DNA of 64,000 nt, from assembly GCA_030647355.1 (NCBI GenBank), contig JAUSIS010000013.1, positions 113,117 through 177,116 on the forward strand, read 5' to 3'. Below are positions 17,193 through 64,000 of this stretch, one piece after another. This DNA is from a bacterium (GTDB taxonomy: Bacteria > Patescibacteriota > UBA1384 > VFKW01). Position 1 is the stretch's first letter, and each line of letters starts with the position of its first letter. The translations under genes were made by a program, and so were the position numbers. The notes under the pieces were generated by a model, which had not been told where the DNA came from, made no database searches, and was given only the letters and a program-made list of their open reading frames with translations.

Positions 17193-17458
17193 ACTATTCG
17201 GGCTTTGCTGGATTGCGCGAATTCGTCAAGGCAATGACCACCTGTGGCAAGAGCATACGCTTGGATTAAGTCCTACTGATCCAAGCAGCAGCCGAAAAGG
17301 CCAAGCTCAGCTAGGAGCAGCGCATTGAGATCTATGAGATACTCGCTGCATCAGGATCTGATAGCATAGCGCAGAGTCGGCTGGAGAAACTCATGACTGG
17401 CACGGAAAGCCAAGTCACATCCGGCGCCGCCTAGGCGCCCGAACTTCATCCCACCCCA

Positions 17459-17492
17459 CCCCCGCCCTTTCCCAGAAAGAGCGGGGTTTTTT
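17459..17492 (+). terminator. Intrinsic terminator, family CCCACCCC...stem...TTTTTTCATACC
   Basis: Hairpin CCCCGCCCTTTC-CCAGA-GAAAGAGCGGGG followed by T6 and CATACC. Confidence 0.6.
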
Positions 17493-17506
17493 CATACCTC
17501 CACCGC

Positions 17507-17535
17507 TTGACCAGTTGTTTATGTAATGCAATAAT
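17507..17535 (+). promoter_or_regulatory. sigma70-type promoter TTGACC-N17-AATAAT upstream of purD
   Basis: Starts 14 nt after the TTTTTTCATACC terminator tail. Confidence 0.45.
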
Positions 17536-17600
17536 CCAGGCAACGCATTGTAGTAAATTCTGCATAACAACAAACCATAGAAACGGAGGAAAACACAGTA

Positions 17601-18878
17601 ATGCGTGTACTTATCGTCGGAAAGGGCGGACGTGAGCATGCTCTAACATGGATGATCACCCAAAGCCCAAGAAAGCCGGAAATTCTGGCAGCACCGGGCA
17701 ATCCCGGCATCGCCAAGTTCGGCACGTGCTATCCAATTTCGGACACAAACCTGGACGGCATCGTCAACCTGGCAGTTGAGAAAAAGGTCGACATCGTTGT
17801 AGTCGGCCCTGAAAACCCTCTGGACGCTGGCTTAGTTGACCGCTTGGCAGACGCCAATATTCTGGCATTCGGCCCCACAGCCGCCGCCGCGCGACTCGAG
17901 TCATCCAAGCTTTTTGGCAAAGGGATCATGGAAGCCGCCGGTGTCACCACTCCTGACTATCGGGCGTTCAACAATCCCGGGAAGGCGCTCAAGTACCTGC
18001 GAGAGCTGCATCTCAGCGACTTCCCGATTGTCATCAAAGCCGACGGTCTCGCTTTTGGCAAAGGCGTCTATATCTGCCTGACTCTGGAAGCCGCCGAGCG
18101 AGCAGTCCAAAACCTCATGGTCGCACGGCTTCTCGGAGAAGCCGGTGACGCCATCCTGGTCGAGGACTTCGTGAGCGGATTGGAATGCTCGGTACTCGCC
18201 GTCTGCGACGGCGAACGCTTCGTCTATTTCCGCGCCATTCGCGACTACAAGCGAATCGGCGTTGGAGACACAGGCGAGAACACTGGCGGAATGGGAGCTG
18301 TTACACCGGTTCCTGGATGCGACATCGCCTTCCACGAATGGGTAGCAGATCACATCATCGCACCCATACTCGCAGAGATGAGACGGCGCGGCATCCCCTA
18401 CAAGGGCTGCCTCTACCTCGGCTTGCTGATCAAGGACGGCGTGATCTATGTGTTGGAATTCAATGTTCGCTTCGGCGACCCTGAAACCCAACCGGCCATG
18501 CTGATGCTTGACGAGGATCTCCTGAAACTGATGCTGGATGCGAGCCACGGCAATCTTGCCATCTCCCGTCCTGCTAGGTGGCTCAATGGAGCAGCCGCCT
18601 GCATCGTCGGCGCCGCCAATGGCTATCCTGGCAATTACGCTAAGGGCAAAGCCATCTACGGCATCAACGAGGTCGAAACTGACGACACAATCGCCTTCCA
18701 AGCCGGTACTGCGCGTCACGGAAACATACTCGTCACCGACGGCGGCAGAGTAGTCGGCGTAACGTCTTACGACGCCAATAGTCTGCCGGCAGCGCTTGAC
18801 AAGTCCCTGGCAGGAATCAGTAAAATCCGCTGCTCGGACATGATCTGGCGCCCCGACATCGGCCACAACGCCGTCTGA
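17601..18878 (+). CDS. purD: Phosphoribosylamine--glycine ligase (GAR synthetase)
   Basis: MRVLIVGKGGREHALTW N-terminus, PGNPGIA, an ATP-grasp core and PurD C-domain all colinear with PurD. Very GC-rich relative to the backbone. Confidence 0.85.
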   Translation: MRVLIVGKGGREHALTWMITQSPRKPEILAAPGNPGIAKFGTCYPISDTNLDGIVNLAVEKKVDIVVVGPENPLDAGLVDRLADANILAFGPTAAAARLESSKLFGKGIMEAAGVTTPDYRAFNNPGKALKYLRELHLSDFPIVIKADGLAFGKGVYICLTLEAAERAVQNLMVARLLGEAGDAILVEDFVSGLECSVLAVCDGERFVYFRAIRDYKRIGVGDTGENTGGMGAVTPVPGCDIAFHEWVADHIIAPILAEMRRRGIPYKGCLYLGLLIKDGVIYVLEFNVRFGDPETQPAMLMLDEDLLKLMLDASHGNLAISRPARWLNGAAACIVGAANGYPGNYAKGKAIYGINEVETDDTIAFQAGTARHGNILVTDGGRVVGVTSYDANSLPAALDKSLAGISKIRCSDMIWRPDIGHNAV

Positions 18879-18912
18879 CCAAATCATCCGGAACTAAACA
18901 CCGGCAACCAAC

Positions 18913-18932
18913 GCCCCTTCGGGGGCTTTTTT
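18913..18932 (+). terminator. Intrinsic terminator after purD (GCCCCTTCGGGGGC+T6+CATACC)
   Basis: Perfect tetraloop hairpin followed by a T-run. The same hairpin type recurs at ~19674-19700. Confidence 0.65.
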
Positions 18933-18946
18933 CATACCAGTTAATC

Positions 18947-18975
18947 TTGACAAAAAAGCGTTTATACCGTACAAT
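18947..18975 (+). promoter_or_regulatory. Consensus sigma70-type promoter TTGACA-N17-TACAAT
   Basis: Located right after the TTTTTTCATACC terminator of purD. Drives the 19089 cassette. Confidence 0.55.
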
Positions 18976-19088
18976 CACATGTTGGTTGCACCTCTGGAAT
19001 CTTCCTTGATTGGCTGCGCTTTGGATATTGTTCAAATCAGTATTCAAACCGTTGCCAACCACCAACGAAAAAATAGGAGGATTACCGT

Positions 19089-19661
19089 TTGAATGCACGC
19101 CAACGAATGATCTGTTTTGTCCAAGGGATAGTTGCCGGACTCTGGAACAACCCGAAGTTCGAAACCGCTATCCTACCTGAGGCAACCGGGCTGAAACGGC
19201 TCGAGAATAGTTTCAGCCAGTACCCGGCACCCGCGGAACCGAACCGTATCATAACGGAGTACGGGCATGATGTCTTGAGTATTGGCTACATGACACTCGG
19301 CGGGCTGTTGACTTTCAACTGCTACCCCTACTCTTACATCATGTGTTGCATCAGGACTACCGTCGGACCTGACAGCCTGGAACAACTCTTCTCTCTCGGT
19401 TGGAACCTCAAAACCGACCAGATGGATAGGGTTGGAACGCCTAACTCAAATATCCTGTATCAAGGACTAAACGGCGCTTTCCTGGATCGGCTCAACGAAC
19501 AACTCGATGTTCTTGGACGGATACTGGCCGGCAGGTATCCCGGTGCTGACATCTATGGCTATTACACCGACCAGCTCAAGCAAATGCTGATGGCGGACGA
19601 GAGTCCTAGTGCGGTATTGTTCCGCGATCTACTCCTTGAATGCGGCTCGATCAGAGCCTAA
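19089..19661 (+). CDS. Hypothetical protein (GC-rich cassette)
   Basis: 190-aa ORF with a GGAGGA RBS. Own promoter at 18947-18975 and terminator at ~19674-19700. Confidence 0.45.
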   Translation: MNARQRMICFVQGIVAGLWNNPKFETAILPEATGLKRLENSFSQYPAPAEPNRIITEYGHDVLSIGYMTLGGLLTFNCYPYSYIMCCIRTTVGPDSLEQLFSLGWNLKTDQMDRVGTPNSNILYQGLNGAFLDRLNEQLDVLGRILAGRYPGADIYGYYTDQLKQMLMADESPSAVLFRDLLLECGSIRA

Positions 19662-19761
19662 CGATCCCCTACCAACGCCCCTTCGGGGGTTCTTTTTTTA
19701 TTTCCATGCGTTTGGGTTGACCTTGATAATCGCTCAGCTTATACTCAAGCAAAGGAGCATT

Positions 19762-20370: not shown

Positions 20371-20450
20371 AGAAACTATATTACTCGAAAAAGCCCGCTT
20401 GACCAGTTACCGACGGGGTGTATAATCCAGACAAAGAAAAGAAAGCTTGA

Positions 20451-21335: not shown

Positions 21336-21399
21336 ATGATTCTCTTTTGCAGGAAGACGAAATAAGCTAACGCTTCTAAACTCTAATTAAAAAGAATAG

Positions 21400-22439: not shown

Positions 22440-22441
22440 TC

Positions 22442-24084: not shown

Positions 24085-24843
24085 TTATTGCACTTGCGAT
24101 ACTTTCCAAAGCTGCTGGAACCAGTTGCGCATGGCAGTCGCGTTTTCCCTGGAAGTAATCACCACACCAAAATTTTCTTTTATTGAGGTCAAAATTGCTA
24201 CATTATCGCCATAAATATAATAATGCGCCGGACACTCAAAACCAACTGGCCCTATTCGCCTCTTTCTCAAGCCTTCCTTCGGATCAAAAAATGAATCAAT
24301 CTTGCCTCTAACCCATACCGAGCGCGTCCAAATCCCCTTCTTTACCTTTCGAGCCACCCAATCAATAAAAAAATTCTTATCCAAAATATCAGTCAATTTG
24401 TTAGTTTCTCCGACATAATAAATCTCATCAACTGGCGTCTCAAGAATCTCCTCGTAAATCGCCTTAATCTCCTCACCTCGGAAAAACCGGACCCTTGGCT
24501 GAAACGGCGAAAACTCGTATAACCGGTTGAATTCCGGCAGAAATTTCTCCAAATTCTCCGCCTGTTCCTGCAATTTCTCCTGCTTGCCTCGAATCAGCGT
24601 CATAATCTTACGAGGCGGATAAGGTATATAAATCCGACGTGTTGCCGTCTGCGTAATCTCAATTAATCCCCTATCTCTTAAGTTTTCTAATTCATGAAAA
24701 ACCGTCGTCCTCGGCAAACCAGTCTTTTCTTTAATTGACACTATACTCGATTCACCAAGTTCAAGACAAGCCAAATAAACTTCAATCTCTTTTTCACTTA
24801 AATCCAATTGTTTTAAAAAATCATCGAATTGCATACTGTCCAC
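24085..24843 (-). CDS. TrmB family transcriptional regulator
   Basis: N-terminal HTH LSEKEIEVYLACLELGESSIVSIKEKTGLPRTTVFHELENLRDRGLI typical of TrmB. C-terminal sensor domain. Confidence 0.7.
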   Translation of the reverse strand: MDSMQFDDFLKQLDLSEKEIEVYLACLELGESSIVSIKEKTGLPRTTVFHELENLRDRGLIEITQTATRRIYIPYPPRKIMTLIRGKQEKLQEQAENLEKFLPEFNRLYEFSPFQPRVRFFRGEEIKAIYEEILETPVDEIYYVGETNKLTDILDKNFFIDWVARKVKKGIWTRSVWVRGKIDSFFDPKEGLRKRRIGPVGFECPAHYYIYGDNVAILTSIKENFGVVITSRENATAMRNWFQQLWKVSQVQ

Positions 24844-25165: not shown

Positions 25166-25741
25166 ATGACCCTAATGAAACGTCTGATCATGGCAGTCCT
25201 GGCAGTATTTCTCATTTCTACCTCCCGCACCACCGCCGACCAGCTGGACACCCAGTTCAACTCCTCCCTTACCTGGAACCAGGACGGCATAACCAGCAAA
25301 TACATCCATAGGGAGGCCTACTTTGCCCATCTACGGGAGAATGAGGTGAACATCGGTGCTAGAGTCTCTGATAATCTGACACTGTACGGCGCCTACATCA
25401 CCAACAACCAAGGGGTAGATCGGGCCGGTATCGTCATCGCCATATCCCAACCGCTGGATAGTAAATGGCATGCCTCCGCCAGTCTTCACCTCTACAAAGG
25501 GCTGAACTCCGCTCCCGACAGGTTCAAATGGACCTTGGTCATCGCCAAACCGGTAAGCAAACACTGGTTAGTCGGTATCTACAACTTCGGCAACAGCGTG
25601 CACGGCAATCCCAATAAGTATTGGGAAGGCGGGCCAGCGCTGATTTATCGAAATGGCGCAACAACCATCCCCATTTTCTTTCTCCTGAAAGACGAGGGAA
25701 GAAAGGGAATCCAAGCCAACCTGAACTTCGCGCTAAAATAG
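25166..25741 (+). CDS. Secreted hypothetical protein (signal peptide, beta-rich)
   Basis: N-terminal signal MKRLIMAVLAVFLISTSRTTA. GC-rich. Overlaps or abuts the downstream radical SAM gene. Confidence 0.45.
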   Translation: MTLMKRLIMAVLAVFLISTSRTTADQLDTQFNSSLTWNQDGITSKYIHREAYFAHLRENEVNIGARVSDNLTLYGAYITNNQGVDRAGIVIAISQPLDSKWHASASLHLYKGLNSAPDRFKWTLVIAKPVSKHWLVGIYNFGNSVHGNPNKYWEGGPALIYRNGATTIPIFFLLKDEGRKGIQANLNFALK

Positions 25742-25752
25742 GAGGAAGCAAG

Positions 25753-27168
25753 ATGGAAACCTTTGATGCACATGGTAATGATGACCAGTATAACCGAACC
25801 TGGATACTCGAGGGCACTCACCCTCGTTACCCTGCGATTGTGCTGGTTTCGCCCCGAAACGATCCGAACCGCTATCGGCTGATAGACAGCTCTGACAAGG
25901 GAGCTAGGAAGGGCAGGCGGACACGCATGTCCCTGGGACTGCTCTTTCTGGCCAGCCATCTGCAGGAAGAAATGGGATACCAATTCAATCAGGCACGACC
26001 AACGGAGAACAGCATATTAGCAAAGCTCTCCAAGGGAAAGGTCATTGGTATTTCAACTCTCCCCAGTAGCTACCTGATTGCTACCCAATTGGCAAAGATA
26101 GCCAAGGAATCGGGCGCGATATCGGTCGTCCTTGGGGGACCTTATGCCTCCAGCTGCGCCAGGGAAGTACTCCTGAACCAGCCGGCAGTTGATCTGATCA
26201 TCAGCGGCCCGGGGCAGATACCCCTGCAAATGATCCTGGAAGACCAGGCCCCAGCCAGTATAAAGGGAGTTTCCTATCGCCAGAGAAACCAGATAGTTCA
26301 AAATACCCTACAGTGGCCGCCCTATCCTCGGACAGATACCGACTATTCTCTCTGGACAAGGCAATCTGACGAACATCATGCTCTCACCTACTGGCAAGAC
26401 GGCTGCCCGGTGGGATGCAGACAACCATGCGTCTTTTGCTTCTCCCGCAAAACTACTCCCGTCAGATGTCCAAGCGAGCAAGTTATACGAGAAACAAGAG
26501 CGCTGGTTAATCAAGGGTATAAGACTGTCGAGGATGGAGGGGATGATTTCCCCTGCGGCGGAATACAAACCTATGGCTGGTTAGAATCCCTTATGACAGC
26601 TAAGACCAGGGAAAAGCTCAAACTCGATATGTTCATCCACACATCAGTCAGGAGTGCCACCTGGCAATTCCCGGAACACAGCGAGCTTTGGATGATCAAA
26701 CGCCTTAGGGATATCGGCGTCAAGACCATGCAAGTAGGCTTCGAAACAGATAATCCTTACCAGATGGTGCTCGAGAAAGAATCTCCCGATAAGATCGAGT
26801 TCCTAATCCGTACCGCTCGAGAGTTGGGCATGAATTTCTTCGGAAGTTGGATATTCGGTCATCAAGGGGAAAGTCGAGCAACCATGCTCCGGACAGTAGA
26901 GAAAATCTACTCGATTCACGAACAAGGCCTCCTTTGGGGGCTGCAGTTTGACCTCCTCTGGCCAGGCCCCTCAACTCGCGCCCTCCAAATGCTCCTACCC
27001 GATCATCCCGAGTGGCAAGATCGGGACTTCCTCCCACCAGAAGAGGTCATATCCGCCTGGTTCAAGACCTACACCAAGACCACATTAGACGAAGCGAGAA
27101 ACCTGCGCAATCAAGTCGTCGTAGATCTCTATGACCAGCTAAATTGCGTCGGCAGCATGCTTCTATAA
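25753..27168 (+). CDS. B12-binding domain radical SAM protein
   Basis: N-terminal Rossmann-like B12-binding region (VIGISTLPSSYL...VVLGGPYAS). Radical SAM CxxxCxxC motif in the CRQPCVFC segment. AGGAGG RBS before ATG at 25753. Confidence 0.7.
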   Translation: METFDAHGNDDQYNRTWILEGTHPRYPAIVLVSPRNDPNRYRLIDSSDKGARKGRRTRMSLGLLFLASHLQEEMGYQFNQARPTENSILAKLSKGKVIGISTLPSSYLIATQLAKIAKESGAISVVLGGPYASSCAREVLLNQPAVDLIISGPGQIPLQMILEDQAPASIKGVSYRQRNQIVQNTLQWPPYPRTDTDYSLWTRQSDEHHALTYWQDGCPVGCRQPCVFCFSRKTTPVRCPSEQVIRETRALVNQGYKTVEDGGDDFPCGGIQTYGWLESLMTAKTREKLKLDMFIHTSVRSATWQFPEHSELWMIKRLRDIGVKTMQVGFETDNPYQMVLEKESPDKIEFLIRTARELGMNFFGSWIFGHQGESRATMLRTVEKIYSIHEQGLLWGLQFDLLWPGPSTRALQMLLPDHPEWQDRDFLPPEEVISAWFKTYTKTTLDEARNLRNQVVVDLYDQLNCVGSMLL

Positions 27169-27186
27169 ACCCCCACAAACCCCCAC

Positions 27187-27217
27187 CCAGCTCTTTTCAA
27201 AAAAGAGCTGGTTTTTT
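27187..27217 (+). terminator. Intrinsic terminator after radical SAM gene (CCAGCTCTTTT-CAAA-AAAAGAGCTGG+T6)
   Basis: Perfect 11-bp stem preceded by CCCCCACAAACCCCCACC. Confidence 0.65.
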
Positions 27218-28256: not shown

Positions 28257-28556
28257 ATGGTATGTCAGAAATATGTCTGCCTATCTAAGTACTTGTTGGA
28301 GCATTTTGGGGACCTGCGAGGACAATTCTGTCGGTGCCAGATTCCGTGTAACAGCACGGATCTGATATTCCTGGCACTCTCCAGACCGGAGTCCTTCCAG
28401 GAAACTGTCGGGCTAAGTATACGGGAATTCAACGCCCTTCATCTGCCCGATGAGGTTTCTGAAGCAATTGAGACTGGCACCATTGACACACTCCCCGAGA
28501 AACTTGAGGTCTGGATCCGGGCTAAAGTACAATACCTGACTGGTAAACCCGCCTAG
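28257..28556 (+). CDS. Hypothetical protein (99 aa)
   Basis: Perfect TTGACA-N17-TAAAAT promoter at 28186-28214 and a GGAGGA RBS. Terminator at 28592-28626. Confidence 0.4.
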   Translation: MVCQKYVCLSKYLLEHFGDLRGQFCRCQIPCNSTDLIFLALSRPESFQETVGLSIREFNALHLPDEVSEAIETGTIDTLPEKLEVWIRAKVQYLTGKPA

Positions 28557-28591
28557 ATCGACACACTGCTTCAGCATCCCCACCCCTTCCC

Positions 28592-28626
28592 GCCCAGCCC
28601 TTTCTGTAAAAGAGCTGGGCTTTTTT
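28592..28626 (+). terminator. Intrinsic terminator (GCCCAGCCCTTT...AAAGAGCTGGGC+T5+CATACC)
   Basis: Preceded by CCCCACCCCTTCCC. Same family as 27187, 29375 and 63914. Confidence 0.6.
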
Positions 28627-28651
28627 CATACCCCTAAGTCAAGATTAACTT

Positions 28652-28680
28652 CTTGACATTTCCACTTCCATAAGGTAAAA
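28652..28680 (+). promoter_or_regulatory. Consensus sigma70-type promoter TTGACA-N17-TAAAAT
   Basis: Identical hexamers to the 28186 promoter. About 40 nt upstream of the ORF at 28722. Confidence 0.6.
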
Positions 28681-28721: not shown

Positions 28722-29363
28722 ATGCCGAAACTTCTGACTATACCTGAAAGCAGTCTTACCTCTCGCCCGGAGAACCAACCTGGGTACTACCGGCTCGAAA
28801 CCCTGATTGATAAGATTCTTGAGGCAGAGGACAAATTGATCCTCAGCCGGTTTCGAGTCATGCTGTCGATAGAATGCCGAGTCCGGCGGGGGGATGCAAT
28901 ACCCACCCAAGACCTTACGCGCATCGTGCCGAAGCTGATGGAAGCTGCCTCCAAGTCGGAGGAAGAATGGCCATTTTCGGTCGCCCTGTTCATCGAGGCA
29001 CAAACGGGTAGCCGCGCAGTCATTGAACAGTGGCTTCATCTCAACCGAGAAGAATGGAGAGTTGATAGCCGCTGCAGCTGCCCCTACTGTAAGGAGACAC
29101 ACTTCAATGTCCTGACAAAAGCACATCTTGCTTATCATATGCAAGAGCGGCAGGAATTACTGCGAGGTATGGAAGCCTATGTCGAACAGGAGTTCGGCAA
29201 AAGAGCATCCATCGTCAGGACTGAACCATTGGGATTCGTCGAAAATGGGCTCATAGGGTACCAGCTCGTCATTGCGATTCCCGGCAAACCAGATAAGCAG
29301 TACTGCATCGCCGTGGACGACGCCCTGCACAAAGAGGATCTCCTCTGGTCACTTTTCCCCTGA
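28722..29363 (+). CDS. Hypothetical protein (213 aa)
   Basis: Perfect TTGACA-N17-TAAAAT promoter at 28652-28680 and a GGAGGA RBS. Terminator at 29375-29407. CSCPYC motif. Confidence 0.45.
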   Translation: MPKLLTIPESSLTSRPENQPGYYRLETLIDKILEAEDKLILSRFRVMLSIECRVRRGDAIPTQDLTRIVPKLMEAASKSEEEWPFSVALFIEAQTGSRAVIEQWLHLNREEWRVDSRCSCPYCKETHFNVLTKAHLAYHMQERQELLRGMEAYVEQEFGKRASIVRTEPLGFVENGLIGYQLVIAIPGKPDKQYCIAVDDALHKEDLLWSLFP

Positions 29364-29374
29364 TCCAATTCACC

Positions 29375-29407
29375 CCCGCTCTTTCTATGAAAGGGCGGGG
29401 TTTTTTC
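29375..29407 (+). terminator. Intrinsic terminator (CCCCCGCTCTTTC-TAT-GAAAGGGCGGGG+T6+CAT)
   Basis: Near-identical stem to 17459 with the arms swapped. Confidence 0.6.
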
Positions 29408-29445
29408 ATTCTAAAAATAAGTTATAATAACCTCGAGGAGCGCAT

Positions 29446-30627
29446 ATGGCACTATCTTTAGGCATTGTCGGCTTGCCCAATGTCGGCAAATCAACCTTAT
29501 TCAATGCTTTGGTCAAAAACGCCCAGGCCCAAGCTAGCAACTACCCCTTCTGTACCATAGACCCCAATGTCGGCGTAGTTCAGCTACCCGATGAAAGGTT
29601 GGAAAAATTATCTGAAATCTCTAAATCAAAACAAATCGTCCCTACAACCGTCGAATTCACCGATATCGCCGGATTGGTTCAAGGTGCGCATCATGGCGAA
29701 GGATTGGGCAATCAATTTCTCTCTCATATTCGCCAGACCGATGCCATCGCCATGGTTGTCCGCTTCTTTGAAGATAAAGATATTGTTCATGTCGCCGGTG
29801 CTATTGACCCTGTCGACGACATTCATGTCATTAACCTTGAATTAATCCTAGCCGACCTGGCAGTCGCCGAAAAACGTCTGGAAGCCCTCAAAAAAGAGAC
29901 CAAATCGGGCGATGCCAAAGCTAAAAAACGGGTAGAAATTATGCAAAAGATAAAAGATGGATTGGATAGAGAAATCCCTGTCAGACAAATCTTCCCTGAT
30001 CCAAATGATCTCGAACCTATCAAAGATATTCAATTTATCACCTCCAAACCAGTAATTTACATCGCTAATGTCTCGGAGGGCCAAGCCTCAATTACTTCAG
30101 ATGAACTGATAAAGCATCACGGCCTGCAATCTATTCTACAGCCAACAAACATCCAAAAAGTCATTGCGAGGAGTGAAACGACGAAGCAATCTATTGATTG
30201 CCACGCTTCGCTCGCAATGACAAAAAATAATCTAATCCTTATCAGTGCCAAAATCGAAGCTGAACTCTCCGTTCTGGCAGAAAAGGAACAGCAAGAGTAC
30301 CTAGAATCCCTTGGGCTCCATGAAAGCGGCCTCAACCGCCTCATAGAAGCCGCCTACGAGACGCTCGGTTTGATCACCTTCTTTACCTCAGGTGAGAAGG
30401 AAACACGCGCCTGGACCGTCCTAAAGGGTTCGAGCGCCCCTGTAGCCGCCGGCAAGATACATAAAGACTTCGAGAAGGGCTTTATCGCCGCCGATGTCAT
30501 CAAATATAACGATTTTATTAAATATAACGGTTGGCAAGGCACCAAAGAGAAAGGCCTCATCAAAACAGAGGGCAAGCAGTATGTTGTACAGGACGGTGAT
30601 GTTATTTTATTCAAATTTAATGTTTAA
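29446..30627 (+). CDS. ychF: Ribosome-binding ATPase YchF (Obg-family GTPase)
   Basis: GIVGLPNVGKSTLFNAL G1 motif, DIAGLV G3, C-terminal TGS domain. An internal insertion relative to typical YchF. Confidence 0.85.
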   Translation: MALSLGIVGLPNVGKSTLFNALVKNAQAQASNYPFCTIDPNVGVVQLPDERLEKLSEISKSKQIVPTTVEFTDIAGLVQGAHHGEGLGNQFLSHIRQTDAIAMVVRFFEDKDIVHVAGAIDPVDDIHVINLELILADLAVAEKRLEALKKETKSGDAKAKKRVEIMQKIKDGLDREIPVRQIFPDPNDLEPIKDIQFITSKPVIYIANVSEGQASITSDELIKHHGLQSILQPTNIQKVIARSETTKQSIDCHASLAMTKNNLILISAKIEAELSVLAEKEQQEYLESLGLHESGLNRLIEAAYETLGLITFFTSGEKETRAWTVLKGSSAPVAAGKIHKDFEKGFIAADVIKYNDFIKYNGWQGTKEKGLIKTEGKQYVVQDGDVILFKFNV

Positions 30628-47350: not shown

Positions 47351-47653
47351 ATGGATCAGGCGCCACAAAAAACGGATCAAACACCAGCCGGTGAATCAAA
47401 AGATGTGCTGGTAACAATGGATCGGTTAATTCAGGCAACTAACCAATTAACCGATATTCAAAAAAAAATATACAAACAAAACAAAATTGGTCCAGTTATG
47501 ATTCGCAGTATCGCCTATGCCCTTGGTTCCACTCTTGGTTTGGCTTTAGTTATCTCTATACTATTTTATATCTTAAAATCAATCGGGGTGCTTGACAGCC
47601 TCTCCGGCGTATTTGGCGATCTTAAAGACTTAAAAGATCTCTACACTAACTAG
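47351..47653 (+). CDS. Small membrane protein with C-terminal DLKDLKD motif
   Basis: GGAGGGGAG RBS, one TM helix, C-terminal GDLKDLKDLYTN. Related C-terminus in the 16584-16796 ORF. Confidence 0.4.
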   Translation: MDQAPQKTDQTPAGESKDVLVTMDRLIQATNQLTDIQKKIYKQNKIGPVMIRSIAYALGSTLGLALVISILFYILKSIGVLDSLSGVFGDLKDLKDLYTN

Positions 47654-48422
47654 TCTCTCGCAAAAACTGCCAAAACAGCTCAAAAATCGTCTTTTGACTA
47701 CCTGCCAGTTCTTTATCTTGAATTATCGTTGCCATCGGTCTTTGAAACGATGCCTTCAATACATTATCTCCATAAACCAAAACAAACCCAGGCAATGTAA
47801 AACCAACCGGCAATAACCTGATCGGCCAGCCCCCATCAATTTCCACATCTTCTCCCCGAAGTTTATTAATCGTCTTCTGATCAATTCTCCTTATTTCCAT
47901 ATGCCTCTTGGTCGCCTCCTCACTAAACCACTGAAAATGATCCGGCATCCATCTATTCCATGGTTCAAGCGACCCGTAGATCATTAGCGGCTGCTTACTG
48001 GTTAAGCAGAGATTTAATGCTTCAACTAAACCCTTGGCGCCATCGTAAAAATGCACGCTCGGCTTTCCCACCACCTCGTCGGAAAGCCCTCTAAGTTGGG
48101 GAATCAATTCCTTTAACTCCTCCTGCTTCTCGTCTAAAATCTTCTTTTGACGCGCAACTTCCTCCGCTTTATCTCCGATAAAATCAATAAGCTTCTCTGG
48201 TCCCTCGGCGACAAAAGTCTTGCGCTTCCCTTCCGCACTGCCTATCGCGGCGAAACCATTTTTTACAAGGTCGTCCAATATGTCGTAGACGGTTGTCCTT
48301 TGCACCTTAGTTTCTTTGGCAATCTCGCTAGCTGACATCTCCCCATTTTGTAAAAGAGCCAAATAAATAAGCGACTTCTTATCGGAAAATCCCATTTTTT
48401 GTAATGTTTGAGAAAATGACAT
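47646..48422 (-). CDS. TrmB family transcriptional regulator
   Basis: N-terminal HTH LSDKKSLIYLALLQNGEMSASEIAKETKVQRTTVYDILDDLVKNGF. Same architecture as 24085-24843. Confidence 0.7.
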   Translation of the reverse strand: MSFSQTLQKMGFSDKKSLIYLALLQNGEMSASEIAKETKVQRTTVYDILDDLVKNGFAAIGSAEGKRKTFVAEGPEKLIDFIGDKAEEVARQKKILDEKQEELKELIPQLRGLSDEVVGKPSVHFYDGAKGLVEALNLCLTSKQPLMIYGSLEPWNRWMPDHFQWFSEEATKRHMEIRRIDQKTINKLRGEDVEIDGGWPIRLLPVGFTLPGFVLVYGDNVLKASFQRPMATIIQDKELAGSQKTIFELFWQFLRETS

Positions 48423-53551: not shown

Positions 53552-53753
53552 ATCCTTTGAGAGGTATCTCGGAGGTCGAGCGAGCATTCATCCTTTTCCA
53601 CCTTAAAGAATAAGGTGTACTTTTTAAAGGCCTCTCGGAGGCGGAGCAAGCTTGGTCCCCGCCTTGGCGGGGTTGCGAGCCGAGAGAGAGCGGCGATTTT
53701 CGCTGGAAAAATCGAACGCGTGCCTTTAAGAAATACGCCTTATTCACTCCCAC
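53552..53753 (+). repeat. Copy 1 of a ~190-bp two-copy structured element (core ~53620-53753)
   Basis: Shares TTGAGAGGTATCTCG...CTTTTTAAAGGCCTCTCG.AGGC..GCAAGCT.GGT.CCCGCC..GGCGGGGTTGCGAGCCGAGAG.GAGCGGCGATTTTCGCTGGAAAAATCGAACGCGTGCCTTTAA with 60768-60958. Outer stem AATAAGGTGTAC.../...GTACGCCTTATT. Confidence 0.6.
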
Positions 53754-53758
53754 TCGCC

Positions 53759-53787
53759 TTGACAATCGCTCATCCGGCTGTTACAAT
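53759..53787 (+). promoter_or_regulatory. Consensus sigma70-type promoter TTGACA-N17-TACAAT
   Basis: Immediately downstream of copy 1 of the two-copy structured element. Drives the 53846 cassette. Confidence 0.55.
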
Positions 53788-53845
53788 ACCTTCAGATTCA
53801 CGCACCCTACATTTCATAGCGCTAAAGCGCGGAGGCACTTTTCGG

Positions 53846-54607
53846 ATGTTGATGGACAAGCTGGATATCGCTCAGTTTCTGGAGAAACGATTGTCAGAGG
53901 CGTCACTCAAGGTAACAATCTTGGCCTTGTTGGTTGTCGGAGGAATCTTCGGCATCACCTGCTCGGCGAACGCAGGTCACATCTTGATCGCCTTGATGTT
54001 GCTGGCAGCCAATATCGTAGTTGGCTTCTGGCTCCTCATCCGTTTTCCACTCACCCTGCACGACCGAGACAACTGCATCGTGCGATTGGTATACCATCGT
54101 CGGTCGCACTACTTCTACGTCGCTGACGGCACCCCTTGCTACCTGGACGTGCTCGGCCTTTCTATGAAGCTCCTGATCGTCGCCGACATGTTTCTTCATC
54201 AGGTGGCAACGAAAGAGTACCGACTCGACGACAACTTCACTCACACTACCACGTCCCTTGGAGTCGAGTTCACTCTTTCCAAAATCGCCAAAGAGAATCT
54301 CGGCAATACCATGGAACAGCTGCTCACTAGATATCGTGGCAGCAACAATGCAAGCTTGACAGCCGACCAGCTACCAGAGCACGGCAACAGGATCGTGGTT
54401 GCTGTCAAGGCAAACCCATATCTCCTGCTAGGCGACGACGGCACTCTGGAAGACCTTCGCAATAGGATCTACGACCAGACCGGTTACGAGGTCGTAGGTA
54501 TCCAAGCTATCCAGCGCCACGAACAGCGCCCCGGAAAGCCAGAGGAGCCAATCGTCATCCCGGAGCTCGCCATTGCCACACTCAACGAGCCTCCATCGGC
54601 AAGGTAA
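53846..54607 (+). CDS. Hypothetical membrane protein (two N-terminal TM helices; GC-rich cassette)
   Basis: Start at MLMDK. TTGACA-N17-TACAAT promoter at 53759-53787. Terminator at 54667-54689. Confidence 0.45.
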   Translation: MLMDKLDIAQFLEKRLSEASLKVTILALLVVGGIFGITCSANAGHILIALMLLAANIVVGFWLLIRFPLTLHDRDNCIVRLVYHRRSHYFYVADGTPCYLDVLGLSMKLLIVADMFLHQVATKEYRLDDNFTHTTTSLGVEFTLSKIAKENLGNTMEQLLTRYRGSNNASLTADQLPEHGNRIVVAVKANPYLLLGDDGTLEDLRNRIYDQTGYEVVGIQAIQRHEQRPGKPEEPIVIPELAIATLNEPPSAR

Positions 54608-54666
54608 GAACTCCAGGAAAGGAATGCGCACACCCAGCACCCCCAAGGAGTAACTGCAAACCCGCA

Positions 54667-54689
54667 GGCCTCGATCCGAGGCCTTTTTT
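54667..54689 (+). terminator. Intrinsic terminator (GGCCTCGGATCGAGGCC+T6+CATAC)
   Basis: Perfect hairpin plus T-run plus CATAC tail. Confidence 0.6.
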
Positions 54690-55306
54690 CATACAAAAAA
54701 TGCTTATGAGACACTCCTAATGACGCGGCATAACTCTCAAGTACGATTCTAACGGCACCGTATCAGTATTAATCTTTCTATAACCCACCCCTTCCACCCG
54801 TAACTAGTATTAAATAATTTAATTATTCCCCCTATACAAGTATAGTATCTTACTTGTAATACCTATCAAGTAATCCAATTTCCAGAATTCAAAAGGCAGT
54901 GGCAACGAGAAGGGGGTACTCGTATATGCCACCACCAGAATCCCATATTAGCAAAGCCCCCAAATTCTGTCAAGGTTCACGATGTTAGTTCAAACCATAT
55001 TGAAAAATCTCCTGTTTTAGTCGCCAACCGATCGTCGCTATACTCAATTGTGGTATAATGTAATCACTCTAACTAATTCTCCTCGGACAAACGCCTATGG
55101 ATATATTTTGATGTATTGAGCTATTCGACGAGGAGGGGATTATGAGCTGTCTAAGAGACTATTCAACAGTCTCCAGCCAGCTGGATTAATGTAAATTGTC
55201 CAGCAACAGATAGTAAGTTTGAGGTATAAAGAATTGACAAATCCTAACCTATAAATTAAAATAAGCGCGGCAATACAAGAAAAAACTGAAAAAGGAGGAC
55301 CTGTAA

Positions 55307-56248
55307 TTGCCAGCCATATTGCGAATCGTACCCAGAAAAACATATGCTACTTTCTCGGAGTTCATTGCAGCGACGCCTCCGTACTCGATAGGAATTGACG
55401 GCATCGTAGCCGAATCAACCCAGTACGAGCAAAAAGGGCCATACCTGAACCTAAACCATCATGACTCCTGTGACCGATTGGCCACGCGCAGTGCCTGCGG
55501 ACAAGCGTTGTGCTATATGCGAGCTGGCTTGAATGAGCAGTTTCGCCTCAATGGCCAGTACCACGCGATTGTGCACGCCAATCACCCCGACGAGGATGTC
55601 TGCACCGCCTGGTTCGTCCTGAAACACCCGGAGCTGACATGTCAGACAATCCACCCCTTGCTGAATCGGTTGATTGCCGTCGAGGATACTATGGACACCA
55701 TGGCCGGCGCTTACCCGTTCCACAAGGATTTACCTCTGCTGGAAGAGTTCGCCTGGATCTTCGAGCCCTACACTCGAGCCAGACAACTGGGAATCATTCA
55801 CCAACCGGCTATCAGCGAACATACCATGATCGGCATCGTTACCGATGTCGAGAATCGTATCATGCGCCACATCACAGGTAAGGGTGAGAGAATCGCCCTA
55901 GATACCCGCTATACCTTGTTGGATAAGGTGGGCCCGGTCGCCATTATCGAGGAGACCGGCCAGCATGCCCGCATCGGACTATTCGGCGATGGCCACAAGG
56001 CATATCTGTCCATCCAGGAATTGTCCAACGGCAATCTCAAGGTATCTGTCGGCCGCATGTCGCCCTTCATCGGATTCAATGTCATCCAGTTCCTAAGCCT
56101 CTGCAACCGAGAGGAGAGACCCTCGGGGGGCAATATCTGGGGCGGCGGCAACAATGTCGGCGGAAGCCCTCGTGACGGCGGCACCAAACTCAAGCTTGTC
56201 ACCCTCAAGGGAGCCCTGGTGCATTGCATCAGACCGATCAAAGCCTAG
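55307..56248 (+). CDS. Hypothetical protein (313 aa; GC-rich cassette)
   Basis: GGAGGA RBS. His/Asp-rich motifs (NLNHHDSCD, VHANHPDED) suggest a metal-dependent enzyme but fit no family I can assign. Terminator at 56242-56276. Confidence 0.45.
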   Translation: MPAILRIVPRKTYATFSEFIAATPPYSIGIDGIVAESTQYEQKGPYLNLNHHDSCDRLATRSACGQALCYMRAGLNEQFRLNGQYHAIVHANHPDEDVCTAWFVLKHPELTCQTIHPLLNRLIAVEDTMDTMAGAYPFHKDLPLLEEFAWIFEPYTRARQLGIIHQPAISEHTMIGIVTDVENRIMRHITGKGERIALDTRYTLLDKVGPVAIIEETGQHARIGLFGDGHKAYLSIQELSNGNLKVSVGRMSPFIGFNVIQFLSLCNREERPSGGNIWGGGNNVGGSPRDGGTKLKLVTLKGALVHCIRPIKA

Positions 56249-56276
56249 CGATAACATCAATAGGCTTCTTTTTTTA
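56242..56276 (+). terminator. Intrinsic terminator with conserved loop GCGATAACATCAA (copy 1)
   Basis: AGCCTA-GCGATAACATCAA-TAGGCT+TCTTTTTTT directly after the stop of the 55307-56248 ORF. Confidence 0.55.
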
Positions 56277-56392
56277 TTTCTTCTTTGCCTTTTAAAATTA
56301 TTTCGATCACTAAATTATTATTAATAATTTAGTATTTTTGATTTTAATGATAGCAATAACATATTCTTAGGTATTAGAAAAGTAAATGAGAA

Positions 56393-59223: not shown

Positions 59224-59258
59224 CGCATCAGCTAGCCCCCGCGATAACATCAAAGGGC
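59224..59258 (+). terminator. Terminator-like hairpin with the same loop GCGATAACATCAA (copy 2), not preceded by a plus-strand gene
   Basis: AGCCC-CCGCGATAACATCAA-AGGGCT+TCTTTTATT. Upstream GCATCAG also matches the 3' end of the 55307 gene. Confidence 0.45.
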
Positions 59259-59347
59259 TTCTTTTATTACCAATTTTTCTCCTTGTTTTTGATTTTCCCC
59301 TATGTTAATCTTTAATTACTAAATTAGTTCAAAAGAAGTGGGGTAAT

Positions 59348-60385: not shown

Positions 60386-60531
60386 ACAAGCTAAGGTTTG
60401 CAAAATCTCAGATGTCATAAATTCGTAAAGTCATCCAAAATTATAGCCATATTCTTGGCATTTTAGTGATATCCGACAATGCGATCAATAACTCTTTCGA
60501 ATATGCTTGTAATCCATTAAGCGAAAGGAGG

Positions 60532-60693
60532 TATGTGAGAAGAAAACGTCTCAGAAAAATTATTCGCTACCGAGATAAGGCTCTCAAGGAGATCAAGAAA
60601 CTCCAGCAAAAAGTTGATCGCAATTACTCGGAAATCCGAACCACACTATATTCCATCAGGAAACTGCCCCCTCAATACGATACCGACAAGTAA
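60532..60693 (+). CDS. Small basic coiled-coil protein (~53 aa)
   Basis: GTG start 5 nt after a GAAAGGAGG RBS. Followed by hairpin terminator CCGGCACCGCTCCTGCCGG+T-run at 60702-60731. Confidence 0.35.
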   Translation, partial: YVRRKRLRKIIRYRDKALKEIKKLQQKVDRNYSEIRTTLYSIRKLPPQYDTDK

Positions 60694-60767
60694 ATCCCCA
60701 CAAAAACCGGCACCGCTCCTGCCGGTTTTTGTATTCCATCCCCCTTATTTATTTTTCGAGACCAGGA

Positions 60768-60958
60768 TATTGTTTTTGAGAGGTATCTCGCAAACCCGCT
60801 AACCCATCCCTCTTTTTCACATAAATACGATGTGCTTTTTAAAGGCCTCTCGCAGGCAAGGCAAGCTGGGTTCCCGCCAAGGCGGGGTTGCGAGCCGAGA
60901 GTGAGCGGCGATTTTCGCTGGAAAAATCGAACGCGTGCCTTTAAAAAGCACGTCGTAT
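60768..60958 (+). repeat. Copy 2 of the ~190-bp two-copy structured element (core ~60825-60958)
   Basis: Outer inverted repeat ATACGATGTGCTTTTTAAAGGC / GCCTTTAAAAAGCACGTCGTAT (one mismatch) differs from copy 1 but keeps complementarity. Confidence 0.6.
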
Positions 60959-60974
60959 TTCAACCTTTACTCTG

Positions 60975-62378
60975 CTAGTTCAGCGAATCCAAATTAGCCC
61001 CAAAACTCCAATCAATCTCCGGCGCATCCTTCAGAAGTCCCACCACAATTTTCTTCATCTCTTCGTATCTCTCTTGGGTTTTGGCCTCAAACTTCGGTGA
61101 TAGATAAGGGCCGTTCTGAGAATAACGAACGATAAACATCGCATCTGAAAAATCCACTCTTATCCCATCTATATCGCTTATCTTCTCGCCCTTGTATTTT
61201 TCCTTCATCTCTTTAACCATTCGATCAACCACCTCTGCCTTAACCTCGTCAGGGCAACCGATCTTGATTTCCGGACTGGAGATATAAACCGGGAATTCCT
61301 TAATAACCTCGGAAAATGGCTTGTCTCGTCTCGATAAATACTCAAGCAACCTCAAAGCTGCATAAAAGCCGTCATCATGCCCGTAAAATTTATCAACAAA
61401 GAAGAAATGACCCGACAATTCTCCGGCAAAAGGCGCTTTTTCCTCAAATAACTTCTCCTTTATCCAAGAATGCCCCGTTAGCCACATGATTGGCTTCCCG
61501 CCATTGGCTCGAATAGTCTCCTCAACTACCTTGGAACACAAGGCATTATAGATAATCTTCTCACCCGGATTGTTCTCCAGAACATCGGCTGCAAAAATCG
61601 CCACCAGCATATCATTCCAAATAACCGCACCCTTGTCATCAACCACACCCAACCTGTCGCCATCTGCATCAAAAGTTAAGCCGATATCGGCCTTCTCTTC
61701 CAAAACTGCCTTAGCCAATCTTTCTGCCAAATGTCTTTCCGTTGGGTCAGGCGTTCCATTGGGAAAGCTGCCGTCAATCTCGGAATTGCGTACTACTAGC
61801 TCTGCCCCTATTTTCTCCATTAATCTCGGCAAAAATTTAGCCGCCGTAGCATTGTTGAAATCCGCCAAAATACGAAATTTCTTATCAATCTTGATCTTCT
61901 CTAATAGTTTAGCAAAATACGCCTCTGTTATATCTTCTTTCTTAACCGTTCCTTTCCCTGTGGCAAATTCACCTTCCTCTGCCAATTTCCTAACCTCCTG
62001 AATCTGATCAGTTACCATTGTCTGCGAAAAATCCGCCCCCAGCTTGAAACCATTGTATTCTGCCGGATTGTGCGAAGCCGACACCATTACCGCCCCTTTG
62101 GTATTGAAATGATATTGGCCGTAATAAACAATCTGTACCAGAGACATACCTAAATCAAACACATCTATCCCTGTACTGGTTAAACCCCGAATAATCGCCT
62201 CCCGATAATCATCGCTAGTCAATCTGCAATCCGATCCCACAACAGCTGTTTTTATCCCATTTTTGACTAGCCAAGTGCCATAAGCTTTACCGATAATTTC
62301 CACACTCTCCACATTCAAATCCTTATCAACTACACCTCGAATATCGTATCCACGAAAAATATATGGGTTTATCGTCAT
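60975..62378 (-). CDS. Phosphoglucomutase/phosphomannomutase (alpha-D-phosphohexomutase) family
   Basis: Active-site loop GAVMVSASHNPAEYNGFKL, the metal-binding FDADGDR motif, and a sugar-binding GELSGH motif. Confidence 0.8.
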   Translation of the reverse strand: MTINPYIFRGYDIRGVVDKDLNVESVEIIGKAYGTWLVKNGIKTAVVGSDCRLTSDDYREAIIRGLTSTGIDVFDLGMSLVQIVYYGQYHFNTKGAVMVSASHNPAEYNGFKLGADFSQTMVTDQIQEVRKLAEEGEFATGKGTVKKEDITEAYFAKLLEKIKIDKKFRILADFNNATAAKFLPRLMEKIGAELVVRNSEIDGSFPNGTPDPTERHLAERLAKAVLEEKADIGLTFDADGDRLGVVDDKGAVIWNDMLVAIFAADVLENNPGEKIIYNALCSKVVEETIRANGGKPIMWLTGHSWIKEKLFEEKAPFAGELSGHFFFVDKFYGHDDGFYAALRLLEYLSRRDKPFSEVIKEFPVYISSPEIKIGCPDEVKAEVVDRMVKEMKEKYKGEKISDIDGIRVDFSDAMFIVRYSQNGPYLSPKFEAKTQERYEEMKKIVVGLLKDAPEIDWSFGANLDSLN

Positions 62379-62585
62379 TATTTACTCCTCGTAATTTATA
62401 TTACTCCTCGTGTTACTATTTTATACCTTTGATAAGTCCCTAGCAATCCCTAAATTATCAATATTAAGTATGGAGCGCTATTTTCTCGCTGGGAAAATAG
62501 ATAGCGTGTTTTCGAAATACAAGATGCCCTAATGACTATCCGTCGATAATAAAATATGTTAAAATATGGCCAAACGGAGAACAAA

Positions 62586-63464
62586 ATGACTAAAAAGAAA
62601 AAAATATTATTCATATCTCTCCCTGTGCTAGCTATCGCCATTCTTGCAACGATCGCCTTTCTCATCTGGCCGCCTAAAACCGCCGTGGCACCTCAAGAGC
62701 CCGACAAAACATCCGAGACACCAACTGAATCTAATAATAATTCTTCCGAAGAGCCGCAACCCACACCAACTCCTGCGCCTACTCCTACGCCAACTCCCGC
62801 GCCTACTCCTACGCCAGCTCCCACACCTACACCAACCCCAACTCGCCCCACCATATTACCTCTTAACAAAGAAATCTCGATTGGCAAAACCACCGGCAAG
62901 CGCATTGCTCTCACTTTCGATGCCGGTTCGGGCGCCGTCCAAACCCCTCAAATCCTGGATATTCTGAAACAAAATAACCTCCATGCCTCGTTTGCCCTTA
63001 CCGGCAAATGGATTGAGAAAAATCCTACTCTTGTCAAACGCATGATTGCAGATGGCCATACTTTCATCAATCACACTTATTCCCACCCCTATCTGACACA
63101 AATCTCCGATGACCAGATTAAAGAAGAGTTTGCCAAAACCGAAGCCCTTCTCAAAGCTCTCGATTCAACAGCCGTCATGAAACCATATTTTCGCCCTCCC
63201 TACGGCAATCGCAACCAGCACGTTTGGGATTATGCCGCCTCTTTGGGCTATCAGTCAATCTACTGGACAGTTGACGCTCTCGATTGGAAAACCGGCACCA
63301 CCGCCGACACAGTCAAACAACGCATCTATGCCAATGAAAAACCAGGTGCCATCATCCTAATGCATGTCGGCGACGATCTCACCCCGCAAGTTTTACAAGA
63401 AGTCATAACCAAACTCCAATCAGATGGTTACTCCCTTGGCACTCTCGAATCCGTCCTCCAATAA
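62586..63464 (+). CDS. Polysaccharide deacetylase (NodB/CE4) with N-terminal TM anchor and (TPxP)n linker
   Basis: LTFDAG (TFDDG-like) motif, HTFINHTYSHP (HxxxxH) and MHVGDD motifs. The TPTPAPTPTPTPAP linker is a tandem repeat at the DNA level. Confidence 0.75.
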   Translation: MTKKKKILFISLPVLAIAILATIAFLIWPPKTAVAPQEPDKTSETPTESNNNSSEEPQPTPTPAPTPTPTPAPTPTPAPTPTPTPTRPTILPLNKEISIGKTTGKRIALTFDAGSGAVQTPQILDILKQNNLHASFALTGKWIEKNPTLVKRMIADGHTFINHTYSHPYLTQISDDQIKEEFAKTEALLKALDSTAVMKPYFRPPYGNRNQHVWDYAASLGYQSIYWTVDALDWKTGTTADTVKQRIYANEKPGAIILMHVGDDLTPQVLQEVITKLQSDGYSLGTLESVLQ

Positions 63465-63561
63465 CTCTCAAGTAGTTTACATAACCACCCTATCGTGCTA
63501 TACTTTAGCCAGTAAAAGCGTGCATTCTTCATTCACAATTTCATCACACGGAGGGACCGCA

Positions 63562-63897
63562 ATGTTGCACTATGTCATCGGTTTCGTTGCATTAATCTCC
63601 CTCGTAGTCTGCTCTGCCAGCTCGGTCCTCCTCTATCACCCTCTAGTCAGTATTAGCCGACGATGGGTAAGATTGTCAGCAGTCATCTCTGCCGCCGTCT
63701 ACTGGATCACAGGCACTATGGCCCTCACCCCCTTCTTAACCTCTCTCAAGTTTCCGGGCTATGGTCCAGTTGCAGCCAGTGCCATAATAGCACTCGTCGG
63801 AGGGATAGCCGCCTGTACAATCGCCGAAGGCGTATTCAATAACTCAGGCAACCTTCGGTTACGACAGAAGCTCGCCGATCAAAACCGGCGCTACTAG
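63562..63897 (+). CDS. Small multi-TM membrane protein (GC-rich cassette)
   Basis: Start at MLHYVIGF after a GGAGGGA RBS. TTTACA-N17-TATACT promoter at 63476-63504. Terminator at 63914-63949. Confidence 0.4.
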   Translation: MLHYVIGFVALISLVVCSASSVLLYHPLVSISRRWVRLSAVISAAVYWITGTMALTPFLTSLKFPGYGPVAASAIIALVGGIAACTIAEGVFNNSGNLRLRQKLADQNRRY

Positions 63898-63913
63898 CCC
63901 CACCCCCTTCCTC

Positions 63914-63949
63914 GCCCAGCTCTTACCTAAAAAGAGCTGGGCTCTTTTC
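63914..63949 (+). terminator. Intrinsic terminator (GCCCAGCTCTT-ACCTAAA-AAGAGCTGGGC+TCTTTTCAT)
   Basis: Preceded by AGCCCCACCCCCTTCC. Same family. Confidence 0.6.
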
Positions 63950-64000
63950 ATTAAACATATCTTCCATTGCCTCCTAAAAAACGTCCGCTTGACAAAAAAA

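Follow-up and report, generated by a model that had tools for sequence, protein, structure and literature searches.

The stretch of DNA analysed here (the window) comprises 64,000 nucleotides of contig JAUSIS010000013.1 (assembly GCA_030647355.1), from the metagenome-assembled genome of a bacterium whose relatives, as judged by comparison of the YchF protein, are Patescibacteria. It carries five copies of a 52-nt repeat, D1, and at least six more are present in the closest relative sampled. D1 is probably a dispersed, lineage-restricted family of homologous intrinsic terminators that sit on accessory genes and descend from one ancestral 3′-end module. This module would have been ~45-75 nt long and would have combined a C-rich leader with a GC-rich stem of 11-12 bp, followed by a U-tract and, as a short tail, CAU(AC). 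In both genomes the copies lie on non-homologous accessory genes with a high GC content at third codon positions (GC3), within insertions in a conserved backbone. The samples are small, covering 64 kb here and 27 kb in the relative (loci L120 and L255 of Logan SRR21362460).

D1 is the largest direct-repeat family of the window in an unsupervised repeat search that was independent of the original prediction, with copies at 17445, 27171, 28578, 29359 and 63900 (Table 1). The common parts are a C-rich leader, an 11-12-bp stem of the form CCC(C/A)GCYCTTTC/GAAAGRGC(G/T)GGG, a T-run and, in all but the 27187 copy, a CAT tail. The stems have predicted energies of -15.3 to -21.7 kcal/mol (z -4 to -6), with a run of four to six T on the 3′ side (TCTTTT at 63943). 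Two stem types exist, which differ by a single compensatory change at pair 4, C-G in four sequences and A-U in five, and 89.8% of the stem cells are paired; with the 3′ partners slid out of register, the figure is no higher than 63%. On a covariance model of the family (R1), the five window copies score 58-63 bits, and the best match in 748 kb of unrelated genomes reaches 26.6 bits; the similarity among the copies is therefore beyond chance. Exact AAGRGCKGGG arms are confined, in the whole window, to the 10 arms of these five hairpins. No Rfam family reached its gathering threshold anywhere in the window, and the lone sub-threshold match was NsiR1 at 29346-29408 (25.9 bits against a threshold of 39, E = 0.14).

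Table 1. Terminators and terminator-associated repeats of the window, with R1 scores and hairpin energies.
Feature	Position	Strand	Parts	Score and energy	Context
D1 copy, C-G type	17450..17498	+	C-box CCCACCCCAC 17450-17459; stem 17460-17471/17475-17486 (CCCCGCCCTTTC-CCA-GAAAGAGCGGGG); T6 17487-17492; CATACC 17493-17498	62.9 bits; -17.3 kcal/mol, z = -5.7	C-box unpaired; next -35 TTGACC at 17507
D1 copy, A-T type	27170..27217	+	C-rich leader 27170-27186; stem 27187-27211 (CCAGCTCTTTT-CAA-AAAAGAGCTGG); T6 27212-27217; no CAT tail	58.7 bits; -15.3 kcal/mol	stem (27187) 18 nt past stop of radical-SAM/B12-binding gene 25621-27168
D1 copy, A-T type	28578..28632	+	C-box CCCCACCCC 28578-28586; stem 28592-28620 (GCCCAGCCCTTTC..AAAAGAGCTGGGC); T6 28621-28626; CATACC 28627-28632	61.1 bits; -17.1 kcal/mol	3′ of ORF 28257-28556, stem (28592) 35 nt past stop; 38/40 identity with L120 14292-14352; next -35 TTGACA at 28653
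D1 copy, C-G type	29371..29409	+	stem 29374-29400 (CCCCGCTCTTTC-TAT-GAAAGGGCGGGG); T6 29401-29406; CAT 29407-29409	59 bits; -21.7 kcal/mol	10 nt (stem 29375) past stop of ORF 28722-29363; directly upstream of ychF promoter and gene (29446)
D1 copy, A-T type	63898..63951	+	C-box CCCCACCCCC 63898-63907; stem 63914-63942 (GCCCAGCTCTT..AAGAGCTGGGC); TCTTTT 63943-63948; CAT 63949-63951	58.2 bits; -21 kcal/mol	directly 3′ of stop (63895-63897) of ORF 63424-63897, stem (63914) 16 nt past stop; next -35 TTGACA at 63989
D1 pair	28592/29375				flanks gene 28722-29363
purD terminator	18913..18938	+	non-D1 stem GCCCCTTCGGGGGC; T6; CATACC	15.4 bits only
Terminator of ORF 53615-54607	54666..54694	+	non-D1 stem AGGCCTCGATCCGAGGCCT; T-run; CATAC		tail alone common with D1
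D19 pair	18894-18932 / 19658-19696	+	purD leader and GCCCCTTCGGGGG stem		764 nt apart; 79% over 39 nt
Second 18913-type terminator	19658..19699	+	ACCAACGCCCCTTCGGGGG and T-run
D17 pair	56236-56291 and 59231-59284		identical 13-nt loop GCGATAACATCAA; different internally complementary stems

The copies have the features of intrinsic terminators, namely a GC-rich hairpin with a U-rich tract, placed downstream of a gene's stop codon and in the same orientation. The repeat starts 0-25 nt past a plus-strand stop codon, and the stem 10-35 nt past it at the four sites where an open reading frame (ORF) precedes the copy; unlike these, site 17459 follows a region of short ORFs without a clear one. At least 12 other terminators of the window lack the motif, so that D1 is no general terminator style.

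The original prediction had proposed a family of seven related terminators, at 17459, 18913, 27187, 28592, 29375, 54667 and 63914. All seven sites are indeed plus-strand hairpins followed by a T-run, with energies of -11 to -21.7 kcal/mol, and the claim that they are not unrelated holds for the five D1 copies, on the evidence of the repeat search and of the compensatory switch in the stem. The two stem types described for the whole set are likewise found in these five. Sites 18913 and 54667 have unrelated stems (GCCCCTTCGGGGGC and AGGCCTCGATCCGAGGCCT) and are ordinary terminators that have only the U-tract and CAUAC tail (TTTTTTCATAC) in common with D1; between 18913 and the D1 copy at 28592, the 16-nt GGGCTTTTTTCATACC is the sole common part. 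A C-rich box had been described 5′ of the stems. Its exact form CCCACCCC precedes three sites (17459, 28592 and 63914) and a variant, CCCCCACAAACCCCCACCC, a fourth (27187), and it is absent from 29375, 18913 and 54667. This word occurs six times in the window against 1.7 expected, with four of the six occurrences (two of them overlapping) inside D1 leaders. The leaders are at the extreme, with 8-13 C per 20 nt, of a tendency of plus-strand terminator leaders here to be C/A-rich and G-poor (C 39% and G 10%, compared with 26% and 18% for the window).

An identical CATAC(C) after the T-run on at least five sites was an overstatement. The tail TTTTTCATAC occurs four times, against 0.32 expected, each time directly 3′ of a terminator stem (17459, 18913, 28592 and 54667); at 29375 and 63914 the tail is reduced to CAT, and 27187 has neither form. 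The TTGAC(A/C) -35 boxes reported to follow several terminators were found at four sites (17507, 18947, 28653 and 63989), each with a plausible -10 box of the sigma-70 type. They lie 14-39 nt past the T-run. Promoters without an upstream terminator also lack CATACC, which makes the tail part of the terminator and not of the promoter.

Evidence for common descent also comes from the closest relative, whose YchF is 74% identical to that of the window by BLAST (79% over aligned columns). Six D1 copies lie within the 27 kb of its two loci. Four of these were found by eye and pattern search, and the other two, which were outside the set from which the R1 model was built, were recovered by the model alone at 29.1 and 33.2 bits. 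The relative's copies stand 3′ of plus-strand genes with a GC3 of 0.60-0.72 that have no detectable homology to the D1-flanked genes of the window. Over aligned cores, copies of the two genomes are identical at 38/40 and 42/45 positions (93-95%), while four-fold degenerate sites of YchF are only 45% identical. The module is thus far better conserved than neutral DNA, and at non-orthologous places. We infer that such near-identity across genomes and loci reflects propagation as a unit, or else a sequence-specific constraint that holds the module constant, and not repeated chance origin. Each of the 11 copies has the orientation of the ORF that precedes it, and the stop codon of that ORF, where located, is at most ~35 nt away.

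The distribution of D1 is patchy. As the original prediction had proposed, we looked for the module in related genomes, and beyond the six copies just described, ~85 kb of distinct sequence yielded none; it came from the other relatives, with YchF identities of 60-73%, whose terminators are generic or of other local styles. A homologue search with the relative's PilB-like ATPase for further D1-bearing genomes returned no relative closer than 55%. Scanning genome contigs for CCCACCCC..TTTTTTCATAC gave, among the matches listed, only single chance matches in unrelated taxa; two viral scans gave 8 and 0 matches, which is background, and the 11-29.4 kb region had no megablast match among plasmids and phages. 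A more distant relative (L245, GCA_040961635.1) shows a stereotyped flank of its own, a palindromic TTTTTTTATATAAAAA common to three bidirectional terminators (8171, 16686 and 17144), and genome-specific terminator styles may therefore be common in the clade. The relative's accessory region (L120 4008-21001 and L255 17273-18028) also contains six TrmB-family regulators in 27 kb, interleaved with D1-terminated genes; the window encodes two regulators of this family (24085-24843 and 47646-48422).

The C-rich box, which had been taken for a non-structural element, has a structural role in one of the two genomes. In the relative's three C-G-type copies, a GCACCC box is paired to a GGGTGC that follows the main stem and precedes the T-run, forming an outer helix that brings the overall energy to -30 to -44 kcal/mol. 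All five window copies are devoid of the 3′ partner strand, leaving the box single-stranded, so that three of the relative's six copies have the outer helix and none of the window's five. The uniform architecture in the window, different from that of the relative's three helix copies, points to separate amplification or homogenisation in each lineage.

The relatives have their backbone genes in one compact and conserved series, VTT-PAP2-Xer recombinase-(x)-YchF-rpsF-ssb-rpsR-efp-PRC-GroEL-TrpRS. The same order is found in the window, though interrupted by large insertions at ~10.2-29.4, 30.8-33.8, 36.7-46.7, 47.6-49.7 and 53.1-58.9 kb. Six of the seven terminator sites fall inside these insertions, and 63914 lies beyond TrpRS, where the backbone comparison ends. 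The window is also a mosaic in GC3, with backbone genes at 0.35-0.48, one gene set at 0.55-0.68 and one island at 0.20-0.25. All seven terminators follow high-GC3 genes. With the high-GC3 class set at GC3 ≥ 0.55, D1 stands after 5 of 17 such genes and after none of the 43 others (p = 0.0011), and when window and relative are pooled, after 11/37 against 0/53 (p = 2e-5). The proposal that the modules mark the ends of GC-rich accessory genes is borne out by these counts.

Several points weigh against this account of D1. The terminator function is deduced from anatomy, and the association with high GC3 in the window weakens to p = 0.018 when only plus-strand genes are counted. Both the contrast between backbone and accessory genes and the copy number are based on 64 kb plus 27 kb. 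No agent of spread was found, whether transposase, target-site duplication or terminal inverted repeats: the ~60 ORFs of the window and the gene tables of L120 and L255 contain no transposase, and no direct repeats flank the D1 copies, the similarity stopping at leader and tail. Finally, the stems may be alike in part because this kind of hairpin is favoured in general. In a metagenome scan the C-G-type 12-bp stem was found at >120 heterogeneous loci, including 16S helix 6, a conserved structured locus, TTNA-flanked palindromes and a few terminators. The stem alone is therefore not diagnostic of D1; none of these loci has a D1 leader or tail, and no close relative is among them.

If D1 is a family of homologous terminators, its RNA would fold into a stable hairpin followed by six U, releasing RNA polymerase and insulating the gene from the promoter of the next. 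The module would have spread as a whole, either copied and pasted inside genomes or carried along by accessory genes in a common gene pool, or in both ways. The original prediction had instead invoked homologous recombination between the modules, or their use as a recognition site. No two copies are identical over more than 16 nt in a row, which is short for efficient RecA-dependent recombination, and exchange between D1 ends is for this reason unlikely. A role as recognition site finds no support either, as integron-type core sites are missing and the nearby recombinase (8591-9577) is a conserved Xer-type protein. It scores 266 bits on the XerD model, 256 on XerC and 224 on the archaeal XerA-type model (above the cut-off of 220), but only 132 bits against a cut-off of 265 on the integron-integrase model; moreover, it is 80% identical and syntenic in a relative (L121) that has no D1. 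Two further ideas were rejected. Small reverse-strand ORFs that start from the ATG complementary to the CAT tail (MKKPR...) have no conserved frame or peptide across the copies, and a diversity-generating retroelement is contradicted by the lack of a reverse transcriptase and by repeat mismatches that are not adenine-specific.

A different origin would be gene capture aimed at terminators, in which a promoter-gene-terminator unit would enter by recombination with a terminator already present, so that the new gene ends up between two direct copies. Three separate terminator repeats (D1, D19 and D17) directly flank single genes or islands here. The D1 copies at 28592 and 29375 do so, the D19 copies bracket exactly one gene (19089-19661) with its promoter, and the D17 copies flank a 3-kb AT-rich island (GC 0.28-0.30) that adjoins a gene of GC 0.55. 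In the relative, a single gene is bounded by each of the copies at 18650, 19566 and 20230. All copies of both genomes are in segments inserted into the backbone, 3′ of a tyrosine recombinase gene. We nevertheless consider capture of this kind improbable. The recombinase is the Xer-type enzyme just described, RYYYAAC/GTTRRRY cores are absent, the identical stretches do not exceed 16 nt, and the D17 stems differ around an identical loop, which is not the pattern of hybrid arms expected from a crossover in a core; local gene conversion between adjacent terminators would explain the flanking similarity equally well. In a broader form of this idea, which we also regard as doubtful, terminator hairpins would serve as landing sites at which units integrate and duplicate the terminator. 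D1, D17 and D19 would then be scars or att-like sites, unlike those of integrons, and integration would build arrays of self-contained accessory genes between backbone genes. The D17 island itself, whose minus-strand genes encode NUDIX, HIT/DcpS-like, AAA_18 kinase and NDK proteins, looks like an insertion bounded by a duplicated terminator.

D1 might also be a non-autonomous mobile palindrome, akin to repetitive extragenic palindromic (REP) elements and their REPIN doublets or to miniature inverted-repeat transposable elements (MITEs), that is moved in trans by a transposase whose gene lies elsewhere in the genome, and tolerated since it doubles as a terminator. Such an element would account for near-identical extragenic palindromes dispersed over non-homologous loci of two genomes and for their patchy occurrence among relatives, and the genome-specific outer helix is what separate amplification in each lineage would produce. 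The machinery and the marks of movement, on the other hand, are missing. The ~60 window ORFs contain neither a Y1 transposase (RAYT) nor any other, and the copies have no inverted doublets, GTAG-type flank, terminal inverted repeats or, as a MITE would leave, target-site duplications; all 11 are single, in one orientation and with the C-rich leader 5′. The constant orientation relative to the upstream ORF would not be expected of random insertion unless selection were very strong, and we judge a mobile palindrome to be an unlikely origin.

The conservation of D1 could, alternatively, have been imposed from outside, by a lineage-specific termination or RNA-binding factor that drives unrelated terminators towards one sequence. 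Conservation far above the neutral expectation at non-homologous sites would be explained in this way, as would the CATAC tail on terminators with unrelated stems and the general C/A-rich, G-poor character of plus-strand leaders, and the TRIT family of mycobacteria offers a precedent (PMC3152330). A general factor, however, would not be expected to favour high-GC3 accessory genes, and the motif is missing from most terminators of the window and of closer and more distant relatives; furthermore, only one of the two genomes has the C-box in paired form. Convergence under such a factor therefore has little probability in our view. That the stem arms are DNA uptake signals arranged as inverted repeats, as in the terminators of Neisseria and Haemophilus, is hardly credible: the window does encode type IV pilus components (PilC and pilins) and inverted uptake-sequence pairs are documented as terminators in Neisseriaceae, but exact arms occur only in the five hairpins and, with 12 one-mismatch singletons, total 22 against 13.3 expected, so that the absence of any excess of free-standing arms largely refutes the idea.

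Several other features were observed in the course of this analysis. Between a promoter at 16845 and the D1 copy at 17450, the window has a stretch of GC 0.57-0.59 (16880-17440) that folds better than its shuffles (z = -3.2). It contains one 91-aa, Cys-rich ORF (16917-17192) with a good Shine-Dalgarno sequence and no Pfam match, which is followed by ~250 nt with only tiny ORFs; the stretch could be the remnant of a gene or else a structured 3′ region. The YchF protein encoded downstream of the 29371 copy (29446-30627) has 393 aa, compared with 366-369 aa in nearly all close relatives, and has an insertion of ~26 residues (around PTNIQKVIARSETTKQSIDCHASLAMTKNN) in a protein that is otherwise 74-79% identical. 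Another repeat, D2, is 136 nt long, GC-rich and 88% identical between its copies at 53609-53744 and 60824-60959. A long inverted repeat (TTTTTAAAGGC...GCCTTTAA) closes it, with hairpins inside, and Rfam gave no match even at E ≤ 5. Its first copy lies just 5′ of a promoter at 53759 and overlaps the start of ORF 53615-54607, taken at its maximal length; D2 could represent a structured RNA of unknown type or else a mobile element of small size. The plus strand is C-rich across the window (1-64000) regardless of gene orientation. The GC skew runs from ~0 to -0.45 and is negative almost throughout, and the coding-strand skew is mostly negative for plus-strand genes and positive for minus-strand genes. 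The strand that encodes YchF is C-rich in all relatives sampled as well, and ribosomal-protein genes lie on the C-rich strand despite the strong skew.

The metagenome scan also retrieved a distinct set of palindromes. At ~20-30 low-GC groundwater and sediment loci among L123-L242 (for example L153, L165, L178, L181, L211 and L240), palindromes of ~35-55 nt with the stem CCCCGCCCTTTC/GAAAGGGCGGGG, several of which have a common inner sequence like GCTTCGAAGCATTTCTTCGCAGTA, are flanked by identical 4-nt direct repeats (TTCA, TTTA, TTGA, TTAA or TGAA), sometimes with two copies per contig. They look like a small mobile palindrome with target-site duplication. In L156, a gene for a large serine recombinase of 510 aa (258-2042) lies between 126-nt inverted repeats (95% complementary), with an adjacent 48-nt pair (92%); the inverted repeats contain the same 12-bp hairpin, and the segment is possibly invertible or mobile.

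Transcription signals and genome plasticity in Patescibacteria, also known as the Candidate Phyla Radiation (CPR), are almost undescribed, and our searches of the literature yielded nothing on either the intrinsic terminators or the intergenic palindromic repeats of these bacteria. D1 offers a practical marker with which to delimit acquired genes and transcription units in reduced genomes, a strong-terminator candidate for the emerging genetics of the group and a handle on gene gain by ultra-small genomes. Should the copies prove to be integration scars, they would represent a new route of gene capture; should D1 be only a repeated terminator, it would be a tidy but ordinary case of a phenomenon known from TRIT and REP elements.

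Among known systems, the attC sites of integrons resemble D1 in being imperfect palindromes 3′ of each gene, in mostly co-oriented variable arrays near a tyrosine recombinase gene. The five window copies, by inspection, have none of the R″ (RYYYAAC) and R′ (GTTRRRY) cores, being flanked by C-rich sequence on the 5′ side and T6CAT on the 3′ side; they do have a U-tract, the genes they flank have promoters of their own, and the recombinase is conserved in relatives without arrays. Pairs of the DNA uptake sequence (DUS) of Neisseriaceae or the uptake signal sequence (USS) of Pasteurellaceae likewise place one short word in both arms of many terminators of unrelated genes, but these words, unlike the D1 arms, are heavily over-represented as single copies, also inside genes. 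The REP, BIME and REPIN elements of Enterobacteria and Pseudomonas come nearer. They too are short GC-rich extragenic palindromes in 3′ untranslated regions, able to affect termination or mRNA 3′ ends, and form genome-specific families of near-identical copies within a genome. D1 departs from them in having its own U-tract and a constant orientation relative to the gene, with no RAYT in the window, no inverted doublets and no conserved 5′ tetranucleotide of the GTAG type.

The TRIT element (Tuberculosis Rho-independent terminator) is a conserved palindrome at gene termini, restricted to the genus Mycobacterium but found throughout it, with 147 copies per genome (Gardner et al. 2011, PMC3152330). 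It has no U-tract, is bidirectional in most cases and extends over the stop codon (at about -8), and its authors proposed that a factor binds the motif (PMC3152330). D1 has a different host and no sequence similarity to TRIT, and it differs in its canonical U-tract, its strictly unidirectional layout, its position at +10 to +35 from the stop codon and its patchy occurrence on high-GC3 accessory genes. Both are nevertheless lineage-restricted palindromes, conserved in sequence as well as structure and found 3′ of numerous unrelated genes, within a narrow range of distances from the stop codon, and in both the conservation of sequence suggests an additional factor that recognises it. On the best reading of these comparisons, D1 is closest in kind to the mycobacterial TRIT, as an analogue only, and also to REP elements.

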